Shown here: positions 18,116 through 21,593 of the stretch, in pieces
Layout: each line of letters opens with the position of its first letter
How positions within the stretch are numbered: position 1 is the stretch's first letter
From: an uncultured Candidatus Ruthturnera sp.
GTDB lineage: Bacteria; Pseudomonadota; Gammaproteobacteria; PS1; Pseudothioglobaceae
Assembly: GCA_964556635.1 (NCBI GenBank)
Contig: CAZKWW010000001.1
Span: forward strand, 1-27,700
DNA length: 27,700 nt
Reading direction: 5' to 3'
Notes under the pieces: model-generated
What the model saw: the letters and a program-made list of their open reading frames with translations, nothing else
What the model was told of the DNA's origin: nothing
The model's database searches: none
Made by a program: the position numbers and the translations under genes

Positions 18116-18664
18116 TTATTTCTTAGCAAAAAATGCAGCAAAAACCTTAATACCGATATAAATAAAGACAATACCGCCAATCATATCGCCTACTAAGTAA
18201 GAGCCAATATGACCAACTGGATCAGCTAAGAATTTTTCGGCTGTTTGATACACAAAGAAGGTTTTTAACAGTGTGCTAATGACCGCTGAGAGCAATACTA
18301 AGAATACAATATGGCCAATGTTGATTTTGTCTTCATCAAAAAAGTTAGACAAGCTAAATAAACGCATAATACTGATTGCCATCATTGGCGCTAAGCTCGA
18401 CATGGTTCTACTCAAAACCTCTCTTTGACTAATATCAACCACACCGCCTTCAATCAATACTTCGGCAATCAAATAACCCAATAACACACCTGGGAAAACT
18501 TTAAAGCCAAACAGTAAATACGACAAAATAGCCGCACCAATTGGTAGCCATAAGTAATTGCCAATCACAAAGTCTGTGCTATCCAGCCCAGAGATGAGCA
18601 CTCTAGATAGCGCTACCATCATCAGTGCAATGAAACTGTGAGAGATAAATTGCTTAATATTCAT
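18116..18664 (-). CDS. Standalone MASE1-like integral membrane sensor, paralogue A
   Basis: Multiple hydrophobic helices; YLWLPIGA and YLVGDMIGGIV resemble MASE1 W.P.G and (W)xGD..G motifs; no soluble output domain. ATG at 18664 used (TTG at 18670 possible). Confidence 0.7.
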   Translation of the reverse strand: MNIKQFISHSFIALMMVALSRVLISGLDSTDFVIGNYLWLPIGAAILSYLLFGFKVFPGVLLGYLIAEVLIEGGVVDISQREVLSRTMSSLAPMMAISIMRLFSLSNFFDEDKINIGHIVFLVLLSAVISTLLKTFFVYQTAEKFLADPVGHIGSYLVGDMIGGIVFIYIGIKVFAAFFAKK

Positions 18665-18699
18665 AAGCAACCATTATATACGATAGCGCTTAGGTAAGT

Positions 18700-18707
18700 G
18701 GGGGGGG
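18700..18707 (+). repeat. G8 homopolymer in the promoter region of MASE1 paralogue A
   Basis: GTAAGT-GGGGGGGG-ATGCG in an A/T-rich intergenic region. Confidence 0.85.
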
Positions 18708-18736: not shown

Positions 18737-19306
18737 TCAAACTTTGTTAAGGCTTGGTGTTGGCGTTGATACAAAAAAAGGCAATAATTTTAATACTGTC
18801 CAAATCACTACGATACCGCCGATCATATCGCCTACCAAGTAGTGTGATAAGAAATCTATTGGATTGATGCTAAAGACTTCACTCTTAGCATAAATTATAA
18901 ATCTTGATAGCGCATGAATAATAGCAGTGACAAAAATCAAGAACAAAACATGTCTGAAATTAATATTTTTTAACTCAGAAAAATCAACCATCTTAAGCTT
19001 TTGTATAAACCACATTGAAATTAGCGGTGCCAGCGCACCCATCAAAGCGCCCACAGCACCCCAAGCAAAATTACCACCCCATGAGCTAAATAAAACAACA
19101 CCACAAAAAACACAACTGGCCATCACGCCGGTCAACACTTGACGACCAAATAATAAAAACACCAAAATTTTTGCACCAATCGGTAAATACAAATACGTAC
19201 CAACTTCTACATCAAAATTTGAAAGATACTTCATGGCAACAGAAGCCAAAAAAATCGCCAAAAAGGCGATTAAGTTATTAATGATCAATGACTTGTGTTG
19301 TTCCAT
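18737..19306 (-). CDS. Standalone MASE1-like integral membrane sensor, paralogue B
   Basis: YLYLPIGAKILVFLLFG, LAP, IN..H..FL, YLVGDMIGGIV shared with paralogue A; no output domain. Confidence 0.7.
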   Translation of the reverse strand: MEQHKSLIINNLIAFLAIFLASVAMKYLSNFDVEVGTYLYLPIGAKILVFLLFGRQVLTGVMASCVFCGVVLFSSWGGNFAWGAVGALMGALAPLISMWFIQKLKMVDFSELKNINFRHVLFLIFVTAIIHALSRFIIYAKSEVFSINPIDFLSHYLVGDMIGGIVVIWTVLKLLPFFVSTPTPSLNKV

Positions 19307-19330
19307 ATATGGCTTTTCTTCTTATTACAA

Positions 19331-19353
19331 ATAGGCCTTTCGCCTATAGGCGA
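19331..19353. promoter_or_regulatory. Palindromic element upstream of MASE1 paralogue B (candidate operator or hairpin)
   Basis: Perfect 14-bp palindrome TCGCCTATAGGCGA (19340-19353) overlapping a second inverted repeat ATAGGC-CTTTC-GCCTAT (19331-19347); minus-strand TAAAAT at 19359-19364. Confidence 0.5.
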
Positions 19354-19385
19354 TTAGCATTTTATTGTTAATTTTTTACGGCTGA

Positions 19386-19667
19386 CTACTTGTTATAAGT
19401 CAGGATCATTGCGCGTCTATCAGCGCTTGATTGTGTGGCGGTGATAATGTCGTTAGACAATAAAACACCGACGGCTCTTTTGATGGTAGATAACGAATAT
19501 TTAGCAAAATATTGGTTTTTAGTCACCGCTGTAATCGTTGCATCTTTTTGATGCATGATAAATTCTAACACGGCTTTTTCTACTTCTGAAAGTTGGTCAA
19601 AGCCTAACTCACGCTCGTAGTTGTCTAACGACTCTCTTAACTCAAATAATTTTTTTAATACGCTCAT
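19386..19667 (-). CDS. Small MarR-like winged-helix DNA-binding protein, paralogue A
   Basis: LSEVEKAVLEFI, recognition helix SLSTIKRAVGVLLS, wing DRRAMIL; SD GAGGGG. Confidence 0.8.
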   Translation of the reverse strand: MSVLKKLFELRESLDNYERELGFDQLSEVEKAVLEFIMHQKDATITAVTKNQYFAKYSLSTIKRAVGVLLSNDIITATQSSADRRAMILTYNK

Positions 19668-19694
19668 AAAAATCCCCTCTAGTTTTTATATTGA

Positions 19695-19982
19695 TTAGTT
19701 GTCTAAACAAAAAGACAAATACATCTTACGCTTGTCGTCTTCTGCTTGTTGTGACTTAATCGCACCAATTGATAATAACTTAGCTACCACACGATTAACG
19801 GTTGATAATGAAATTTTTGAAAAATACGGATGCTTCAAAATATCAGAAATGGTGGTTTGTTTTTGATTGCTCACAAATTCCAGAATACTGCGCTCAATCT
19901 CAGAATAGTCTTGAATACCAAGTGCTATTTCTTGCTCATGTAGTGCTTCTCTTAACTTAAATAGCCTTTCTAATGCTTCCAT
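19695..19982 (-). CDS. Small MarR-like winged-helix DNA-binding protein, paralogue B
   Basis: SLSTVNRVVAKLLS, wing DKRKMYL; from ATG at 19982 it aligns without gaps to paralogue A (40/93 identical by hand). TTG at 20003 is the alternative start. Confidence 0.8.
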   Translation of the reverse strand: MEALERLFKLREALHEQEIALGIQDYSEIERSILEFVSNQKQTTISDILKHPYFSKISLSTVNRVVAKLLSIGAIKSQQAEDDKRKMYLSFCLDN

Positions 19983-20071
19983 GTCTTTTAAAAATAGTTT
20001 CAACCTGACTAGATTATATAATAAATAATCATTAAGTGTATATCATAAAAATATATTTTTACTAAAGATAG

Positions 20072-20080
20072 TGTTATAAT
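20072..20080 (+). promoter_or_regulatory. Candidate extended -10 promoter (TGtTATAAT)
   Basis: Perfect TGn-TATAAT with no ORF of size directly downstream; no recognisable -35. Confidence 0.45.
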
Positions 20081-20086
20081 TCATGG

Positions 20087-20159
20087 CAACCTTGGTGTGT
20101 GGGTTATAAAAAATACTGTTTTTTATCTTCTCTCCTTAATAGAAGATCCGTACATCAAG
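20087..20159. ncRNA. Candidate small RNA / structured leader between convergent promoters
   Basis: Hairpins ATAAAAAA-TACTG-TTTTTTAT (20106-20126) and ATCTTCT-CTCCTTAAT-AGAAGAT (20125-20147); bounded by promoter-like motifs on both strands. Strand and ends unproven. Confidence 0.35.
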
Positions 20160-20165
20160 TTTCTT

Positions 20166-20194
20166 ATTGTAAAAGTTATATATATATATATCAA
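20166..20194 (-). promoter_or_regulatory. Sigma70 promoter directed at the winged-helix genes
   Basis: -35 TTGATA (20189-20194), exactly 17-bp spacer (20172-20188), -10 TACAAT (20166-20171). Confidence 0.65.
20177..20191. repeat. (TA)7T dinucleotide microsatellite
   Basis: TATATATATATATAT read directly; fills most of the spacer of the minus-strand promoter. Confidence 0.9.
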
Positions 20195-20203
20195 TAAAAT
20201 GCA

Positions 20204-20212
20204 TGCTATAAT
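20204..20212 (+). promoter_or_regulatory. Extended -10 promoter for hupB (TGcTATAAT)
   Basis: TG at 20204-20205, TATAAT at 20207-20212, ~100 nt ahead of the hupB ATG. Confidence 0.6.
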
Positions 20213-20220
20213 AAACCAAT

Positions 20221-20281
20221 CTTGGGGATTAGAAAAAATACTTGTCTCTCTCCTTAGAAAAATGAGTTGCTAATTCCCAGG
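20221..20281 (+). promoter_or_regulatory. Structured 5' leader of hupB
   Basis: CUUGGGGAUUAG (20221-20232) pairs fully with CUAAUUCCCAGG (20270-20281), 12 bp with two G-U pairs, enclosing 37 nt that contain UCUCUCCUUA. Confidence 0.55.
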
Positions 20282-20312
20282 ACCTTAATTCAACAAATAG
20301 GATAAATATAAA

Positions 20313-20585
20313 ATGAACAAATCAGAATTAATTGATGCAATTGCATCAGAAGCAGGAATTTCTAAAGCAGATGCAGCTCGTGCATTAAACGCAACAACAG
20401 ATGCAATTACTGGCGCTATGGCTAAAGGTGATGGCGTACAACTAACAGGCTTTGGTAGCTTTGTTGTTAGAGATCGTGCAGCACGTACAGGCCGCAACCC
20501 ACAAACTGGTGCAACTATCCAGATTGCAGCAAGCAAAGTGGCAGCCTTTAAAGCAGGTAAAGCATTGAAAGAAGCGGTTAACTAA
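20313..20585 (+). CDS. hupB: Nucleoid-associated protein HU
   Basis: [44 protein letters not shown]. Confidence 0.95.
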
Positions 20586-20600
20586 AAACCATTACTTCAT

Positions 20601-20634
20601 TAATAAAAAAGCGCCAATTGGCGCTTTTTTATTA
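20601..20634. terminator. Bidirectional intrinsic terminator between hupB and the kinase gene
   Basis: Perfect 34-bp palindrome TAATAAAAAAGCGCCAA/TTGGCGCTTTTTTATTA between convergent genes. Confidence 0.92.
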
Positions 20635-20651
20635 CCTAAAACAATAACAAC

Positions 20652-21593
20652 TTAAAATAAAGGCTCACCATAATTTTGTTGGTATAGTTTTTCTATTTTA
20701 TCTATATCAAATTGATGATTCTGCGTACCTAAATGGGCAATCTTAATTGCACCTAATAGCCCTGCCAGTTGGCCAGTGGTTTTCCAATCCATATCATTCA
20801 TCAAACCATACAACAAACCTGCGCGATAAGCATCGCCGCAACCGGTTGGATCTTGTGTTGCGTCTGCCTTAGCCGGTGCAATAGCAATCACCTCGCCAGC
20901 AGTATGAATTTCACTACCTTCGCCACCTTTGGTGATAATCAGCGCATCCACCATTGAAGCAATGGCTTCAAGATCAAGCCCGGTTTTGTCTTGCAACATT
21001 TGTGATTCATAATCATTCACCGCCACATAAGTCGCTTGCTTGACAAACGTTGTCAGCTCTTCGCCTGAAAACATTGGCATGCCCTGACCCGGATCAAACA
21101 TAAAGGGGATATTGGCATCAGCAAACTGCGCAGCATGCTCAATCATACCGTCACGACCATCGGGAGAAACAATACCAATATCTACCACGCTGGCATCACT
21201 GACTTTGTTTTGGTGAGAGTCACTCATCGCGCCTGGATGAAAAGCGGTAATTTGGTTGTCATCCATGTCAGTGGTAATGAATGCCTGCCCAGTATAAGCA
21301 CCTTCGATAACTTTCATGTGTGTGGTGTTCATGTGGTGTGTTTCCATCCATTTCATGTATGGCGCAAAGTCTTCACCCACAGTGGCCATTGGCACAGAAC
21401 TAGCCCCTAATAAATGAAGATTATACGCAATGTTGCCACCACAGCCACCAAACTCCTTGCGCATGGTTGGCACCAAAAATGAAATATTTAGCATGTGTAC
21501 TTTATCAGGCAAAATATGATTTTTAAATTGATCTTGAAACACCATAATTGAATCGAAGGCATAAGAGCCGCAAATAAGTGCTGTTTTTGACAT
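20652..21593 (-). CDS. PfkB-family carbohydrate kinase, probable adenosine kinase
   Basis: FGGCGGNIAY, FDPGQ, VNDYE, ITKGGEGS, DPTGCGDAYRAG PfkB signature. Confidence 0.82.
   Translation of the reverse strand: MSKTALICGSYAFDSIMVFQDQFKNHILPDKVHMLNISFLVPTMRKEFGGCGGNIAYNLHLLGASSVPMATVGEDFAPYMKWMETHHMNTTHMKVIEGAYTGQAFITTDMDDNQITAFHPGAMSDSHQNKVSDASVVDIGIVSPDGRDGMIEHAAQFADANIPFMFDPGQGMPMFSGEELTTFVKQATYVAVNDYESQMLQDKTGLDLEAIASMVDALIITKGGEGSEIHTAGEVIAIAPAKADATQDPTGCGDAYRAGLLYGLMNDMDWKTTGQLAGLLGAIKIAHLGTQNHQFDIDKIEKLYQQNYGEPLF

Follow-up and report, generated by a model that had tools for sequence, protein, structure and literature searches.

The window analysed here is a stretch of 27,700 nucleotides from the genome of an uncultured Candidatus Ruthturnera sp. 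of the family Pseudothioglobaceae, the assembly of which comprises 1,013,342 bp in 184 contigs (39.5% GC, 82% complete). On its plus strand lies a gene for an HU-family DNA-binding protein of 90 amino acids (20313-20585; PF00216, E 2.2e-35), and a group of genes lies upstream of it on the minus strand. The first of these encodes a winged-helix, MarR-like regulator of 95 amino acids (19695-19982 from the gene calls; PF01047, E 2.8e-6) and the second a paralogous winged-helix regulator of 93 amino acids (19386-19667). Two genes for MASE1-like membrane proteins (PF05231) are found on the same strand as the regulators at 18737-19306 and 18116-18670. In the intergenic region, at 20177-20191, the window contains a microsatellite composed of a perfect (TA)7 and one further T, written here as (TA)7.5, for which natural alleles of 6.5, 7.5 and 8.5 units were found.

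We infer that the active promoter of the HU gene is P2, an extended -10 promoter with the sequence TGcTATAAT located 100 nt upstream of the gene on the plus strand (20204-20212). Its -10 hexamer occupies 20207-20212 and its predicted start lies near 20219. The TGnTATAAT motif of P2 was kept in all six lineages or variants compared, always with a leader hairpin directly after it, and a poor -35 (TATATA) together with a TGn motif is common to all relatives. Extended -10 (TGnTATAAT) sigma-70 promoters do not depend on a -35 box and need little upstream help. P2, with its predicted start, resembles this class in both the TGn motif and the poor -35. Relative to P2, the TA tract covers about -42 to -28, and its last two nucleotides alone enter the P2 spacer. 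The leader hairpin is 5'-terminal in the HU mRNA and spans 20220-20282 of the plus strand (-20.2 kcal/mol, z -2.1). RNA runs contain almost nothing of the locus, and run X8 yielded only pieces of HU coding sequence, which came from relatives.

The spacer upstream of the HU gene contains two tandem copies of one arrangement, in which TGnTATAAT is followed directly by a hairpin closed by CUUGG...CCAAG. P2 and its hairpin form unit 2. Unit 1 begins with a second extended -10 copy, TGtTATAAT (P1, plus strand, 20072-20080; predicted start near 20087), which is kept in the congeners G008 and G009 and weakened in G006. It continues with a hairpin at 20091-20159 and a T-rich tail at 20160-20168, which together resemble a terminator (20091-20168, plus strand; -19.2 kcal/mol, z -2.8). 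Both hairpins fold better than shuffled sequence, as the z-scores of -2.8 and -2.1 for units 1 and 2 indicate, and their outer stem of 10 pairs is kept in 13 instances from seven lineages, with compensatory changes in three of the pairs. The TA tract follows the T-rich tail of unit 1 and precedes the -10 of P2. Since the congener G010 keeps an HU-like ORF between two such promoter-hairpin units (L005:2190-2720), unit 1 is most easily explained as a promoter and leader that were orphaned when a tandem HU gene was lost. It is probably the leader remaining from a deleted HU paralogue, and the deletion junction is likely to be the short repeat TCTTAT/TCTTAG. Where the window has the tract, G010 carries a palindrome whose arms measure 13 bp and whose final letters are the TGC of the extended -10.

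A related leader accompanies HU orthologues across the family, about 200 nt upstream of each HU start (L007-L029). This conserved, 5'-terminal hairpin starts right after the -10 box, and in the main HU orthologues a GGAGG pairs with a CCUCC while the loops resemble the 3' tail of 16S rRNA. No Rfam family reached the gathering threshold anywhere in the window, the leader copies included, and the family-wide hairpin is probably an undescribed HU leader element. Near-identical contigs of a G006-like species (L046-L055) also differ by an indel of 6 nt, ATAAAC, which separates the Shine-Dalgarno region from the HU start codon and lies 5-15 nt before the ATG.

Two promoters are predicted for the minus-strand genes. 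The proximal one, TATACA-18-TATAAT (20013-20042), matches the consensus at 10 of 12 positions. Transcription from it is predicted to begin near 20006, which leaves 24 nt to the ATG of the first regulator at 19982. It is kept in four of five lineages, namely the window's own, G008 and both types of G009, and G006 has a minus-strand TATAAT at a similar distance from its HU start. We infer that the regulator operon runs from this proximal promoter. The distal candidate, found by promoter scan, combines a -35 hexamer TTGATA (20189-20194) with a -10 hexamer TACAAT (20166-20171) and would start transcription near 20159. Its 17-bp spacer is mostly filled by (TA)7T, and it too matches at 10 of 12 positions. 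A preliminary description of this locus had given the same coordinates and layout, with the tract lying over the -35 region of the HU promoter, and both are right. In a scan of 19300-20700, the distal match ties for the best promoter-like site, and nine such sites were found where 6.2 +/- 2.4 were expected. A match of 10/12 or better arises with P=0.38 in a random 309-bp sequence of the 26% GC intergenic composition, and the genome holds 318 matches of this quality, so the distal hexamers alone weigh little.

A second variable repeat lies further along the operon. A poly-G tract of eight residues (18700-18707), which is poly-C on the coding strand of the operon, occupies the 66-nt spacer between the two MASE1-like genes. 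Its length varies inside the species, being G8 in the window, G9 in contig L073 and G4 in the haplotype of L067, L068 and L070, and it is G7 in G008. On the minus strand, a TATAAT follows the poly-G tract after about 20 nt and precedes the ATG of the second MASE1-like gene by 8 nt. This TATAAT could be an internal or leaderless promoter.

Long simple repeats are scarce in this organism. A census of the 1.01-Mb genome yielded one dinucleotide run of more than five units, which is the (TA)7.5 tract, together with two G8 runs, one of them the poly-G tract of the operon, and three A/T runs of at least 11. The expected number of (TA)7 copies in the genome is 0.054 under a Markov model of order 0 and 0.0002-0.0003 under orders 3 to 5, and the tract is therefore not a chance feature. 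Across the genus, (TA)6 or longer is likewise rare, with five sites in 12 genomes, two of which are the HU-locus tract. The longest homopolymers of the genome are an A13 (C42:3284-3296), a T12 (C112:228-239) and a T11 (C74:4811-4821), of which the A13 and T11 are intergenic, and all three are likely to be further unstable sites in a genome without repair. A congener, G004, carries a (TA)12 tract (L056:1491-1514; G004:C36:9890-9913) in the spacer from which a PHP-domain gene and an RfaH/NusG-like gene diverge. That tract stops 14 nt upstream of a TATAAT, so a TA repeat again occupies the -35 region of what is likely to be a promoter.

Several other roles for the tract were considered and set aside. 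The ORFs that cross it are 23-58 amino acids long in the window and up to 83 amino acids in the sister species, and in both they are of low complexity and not conserved. Neither strand of 20160-20200 folds better than its shuffles, which speaks against a cruciform or hairpin. The flanking inverted repeat TTATTG/CAATAA, a conceivable operator, is missing from relatives. An IHF-like site (TATCAATAAAATG), which has one mismatch to the consensus, is also missing from relatives.

The length of the tract varies in nature. Contigs of the window's own species were retrieved by exact-protein look-ups, and alleles were read from consensus contigs. These look-ups were far more productive than pattern scans of metagenomes and genomes, which gave two and three loci, respectively. 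The allele of 6.5 units is present in JGI 3300009103 and ERZ23498694, and that of 8.5 units in ERZ23498832. The commonest allele in the species, 7.5 units, is present in the window, in JGI 3300007514 and 3300008740, in ERZ23498662 and ERZ23498581, in Logan contigs of SRR8062319 and in a contig of run X2, which is taken to be SRR8062338 because a contig of 948 nt matches in length. Some of the ENA and Logan entries possibly derive from the same samples and are not all independent, but even with such overlap the three alleles are spread across at least five distinct samples. Over 19100-20700, nine own-species contigs show SNPs at three positions as against two indel events at the tract, and the two contigs with 6.5 units differ from the window in nothing else. 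The preliminary description had named a fixed repeat length across populations as the observation that would count against a switch, and the three lengths on near-identical flanks refute such fixity. It had also predicted that a change of one unit would give a spacer of 15 or 19 bp. This is what the 6.5- and 8.5-unit alleles of the species provide, as 6.5, 7.5 and 8.5 units correspond to distal minus-strand spacers of 15, 17 and 19 bp. The G006-like sister species varies in the same manner, with 6.5 units in at least five contigs and 7.5 in three at an identity of at least 99.7%. All four combinations of tract allele and flanking SNP are present there, a pattern that recurrence and recombination fit equally well. 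In run X5, which is G008-like and has a depth of about 56, Logan contigs break off to the left and to the right of the tract (20146-20216), and this could reflect either heterogeneity of the tract or the behaviour of the assembler.

At the orthologous site, a TA-rich stretch is present in all four congeners that could be aligned through the region, at identities of 78-94%. The closest, G008 (94% identical), has a tract of equal length interrupted by one C, G009 (89%) has two interrupted forms, and G006 (about 80%) has a pure tract. The interrupted tracts of G008 and G009 are uniform across all independent contigs recovered per lineage, and that of G008 is identical in two independent assemblies. 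The distal promoter reads TTGATA-17-TACAAT in the window's lineage, TTGATA-17-TAAAAT in G008, TCGGTA-16-TATAAT in type a of G009 and TTATCA-17-TACAAT in type b, while on the minus strand of G006 neither an acceptable -10 nor an acceptable -35 was found at this site. The -35 hexamer TTGATA is kept in G008, changed to TCGATA/TCGGTA in G006/G009, and degraded in both G009 types. The hexamers are not kept wherever a variable tract is kept, as the G006-like lineage has a pure, polymorphic tract and no minus-strand promoter. Since G006 varies without the promoter and the interrupted tracts are uniform, including that of G008 with its promoter, variability follows the purity of the tract and not the presence of the promoter. 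Depending on lineage and allele, CTTATT and ATAAAA stand 22 to 27 nt apart, so the spacing at the tract is under no tight constraint. The A-rich block directly upstream of the tract is kept in all lineages.

The genetic background of the organism offers a reason for this instability. Domain searches of 10 genomes of the genus, four of them at least 97% complete, found neither MutS_V (0/10) nor MutL_C (0/10), and control genomes returned the matches expected of them. In the family, MutS_V was found in one of 60 genomes with a completeness of 95% or more, a set that includes many closed genomes. The Pseudothioglobaceae thus appear to be a family without MutS/MutL mismatch repair. Because MutS and MutL are missing, slippage at repeats goes uncorrected, and uncorrected slippage in turn accounts both for how few long repeats there are and for the fact that the survivors are polymorphic. 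Short mono- and dinucleotide runs are unstable by the same process in mismatch-repair-deficient bacteria such as mutS and mutL mutants of E. coli. The present genome is like those mutants in that it is depleted of long runs and its few remaining runs are polymorphic, but here the loss of repair is a fixed trait of a whole marine family and not the mark of a mutator strain.

The analysis establishes that the tract exists, that it is unique and polymorphic, that the repair genes are missing and that P2 is conserved together with its hairpin. The best explanation for these findings, to which we give about an even chance, is that the tract is a hypermutable microsatellite whose changes are tolerated and which lies at and upstream of the -35 position of an HU promoter of the extended -10 type. 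In favour of this reading, besides the polymorphism and the missing repair genes, are the equal variation in the G006-like species, where no minus-strand promoter is recognisable, the dependence of variability on tract purity, the conserved proximal promoter of the regulators, the chance level of the distal match and the loose spacing at the tract. Replication slippage would add or remove TA units in a family that has no MutS or MutL to correct them. The affected DNA is non-coding and would lie between a relic unit, whose tandem HU gene has been lost, and the active HU unit. As a promoter of the TGnTATAAT type, P2 would be independent of its -35 box. Every allele presents P2 with the same alternating TA letters at -35 and with a constant distance between -10 and -35, so a change of length shifts the upstream DNA by 2 bp and does no more. 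Such changes would be tolerated, and the tract would drift among 6.5, 7.5 and 8.5 units without serving as a dedicated on/off switch. Length changes are presumably nearly neutral. Against neutrality stand three findings: the commonest allele, of 7.5 units, provides the 10/12 promoter with a spacer of precisely the optimal 17 bp, this spacer length also persists in G008 although its tract is interrupted, and a second polymorphic repeat, the poly-G tract, lies in the same operon. The persistence of a TA-rich tract at 78-94% identity, together with its standing as the sole long dinucleotide repeat, also hints at selection.

The most serious rival, which we regard as less likely but still a real possibility, is the phase switch proposed in the preliminary description. 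By this account, slippage would set the spacer of the distal promoter to 15, 17 or 19 bp, and only the 7.5-unit allele would be ON. In that state, extra transcription would run antisense to P1 across the relic leader and reach the winged-helix/MASE1-like operon, and the distal promoter, which overlaps P2, may also compete with the HU promoter. The mutational half of the proposal has held up, as natural alleles exist and the repair genes are missing, and without mismatch repair even seven units should be unstable. Its other support comes from the 10/12 match with an optimal spacer, the commonness of the 17-bp allele among the three, the conservation of TTGATA-17-TAAAAT in G008, the uniqueness of the tract as a long dinucleotide repeat and the presence of a second variable repeat in the operon. 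The regulatory half has fared less well. The distal promoter is a prediction that chance would supply with P=0.38, its -35 is degraded in both G009 types, and G006 is equally polymorphic with no usable -10 or -35 on the minus strand. If the promoter is real, the change of spacer would be an on/off step. A conserved proximal promoter presumably serves the operon already, and the leader from the distal one would be about 177 nt long. The targets would be small regulators and membrane proteins, not the surface or restriction genes that are usual for such switches, and the genome has no general contingency-locus strategy. Contingency-locus genomes such as those of Haemophilus, Neisseria and Campylobacter differ in this respect, as many long simple repeats beside surface and restriction-modification genes were not found in the 1.01 Mb examined.

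In Mycoplasma, (TA)n spacers in the promoters of the Vmm/Vmc surface proteins lie before surface lipoprotein genes, and their ON/OFF effect has been shown experimentally. The present locus shares the use of TA repeats as a promoter spacer and the setting of a small AT-rich genome, but no surface lipoprotein genes lie behind its tract and the promoter is predicted from sequence. The preliminary description had drawn the parallel with the fimbrial genes of Haemophilus influenzae, where the account of van Ham et al. (1993) given in PMC2651432 places (TA)9-11 in the overlapping divergent promoters of hifA and hifB. As at hifA/hifB, a TA tract lies in a divergent intergenic region, here between a candidate -35 and a candidate -10, its units would change that spacer in 2-bp steps, and its length differs among natural strains or populations. 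This likeness of layout favours the switch. The likeness does not extend to both spacers, as the tract lies within the spacer of the predicted minus-strand promoter alone and at or upstream of the -35 of the HU promoter. The present tract also differs in its 6.5-8.5 units, in its targets, which would be small regulators and MASE1-like membrane proteins instead of fimbriae, and in an organism that has neither mismatch repair nor a wider set of contingency loci. A stronger form of the same idea would make the winged-helix/MASE1-like operon a true contingency locus of a marine sulfur oxidiser that is free-living, has a streamlined genome and lacks mismatch repair. In it, the TA tract would toggle (15/17/19 bp) a distal promoter that overlaps the HU promoter and competes with it, the poly-C tract would add a second switch, and heritable heterogeneity of expression would result in pelagic populations. 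We consider this form unlikely.

Less probable still is that the tract acts as a rheostat for HU. Steps of 2 bp would rotate the A-tract TAAAAG (about -49 to -43), the relic terminator and P1 relative to P2, and would modestly tune HU through contacts resembling those of an UP element or through read-through from P1. Consistent with this, the tract abuts P2, the A-rich block is kept directly upstream in all lineages, and P1 and P2 are arranged in tandem on the same strand. However, the upstream block does not keep its phase relative to P2, as the distance between them can differ by as much as 5 nt from one lineage or allele to another, and extended -10 promoters need little upstream help. The preliminary description had likewise allowed for tuning of HU by the tract. 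Geometry speaks against this, since P2 has an extended -10 and a change of one unit leaves its core sequence and spacing as they were. Finally, the variation in length might be an artefact of sequencing or assembly at a site of low complexity, and the tract itself a chance feature. The evidence comes from consensus contigs throughout, one old metagenome contig has an N beside the tract and the contigs of run X5 break there. This reading is nevertheless very improbable, as the three alleles come from three assembly sources (JGI, ENA and Logan), four samples of a single project, assembled at ENA under one naming scheme and presumably by one pipeline, include one with 6.5 units, two with 7.5 and one with 8.5, similar variation occurs in the G006-like species, a 15-nt tract is well within Illumina read and k-mer length, and its chance expectation is at most 0.05.

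Most known cases of switching by repeats come from mycoplasmas and from pathogens that live with a host. A search of the literature found no paper that links SUP05 or Thioglobus to phase variation or mismatch repair. A multi-allelic natural repeat polymorphism in a pelagic sulfur oxidiser, tied to a family-wide loss of mismatch repair, seems to be new, as no paper was found reporting either. Here, such a repeat has been observed directly in a SUP05-type sulfur oxidiser from wild pelagic populations, and since samples with each allele have been identified, the claim that it acts on expression can now be tested. If the repeat is a tolerated microsatellite without control of expression, it offers a clean natural case of tolerated instability and a useful population strain marker. 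If it does control expression, stochastic switching would extend to free-living ocean chemoautotrophs, and this would suggest that, where the loss of mismatch repair has become fixed, the few repeats that survive are made into switches.
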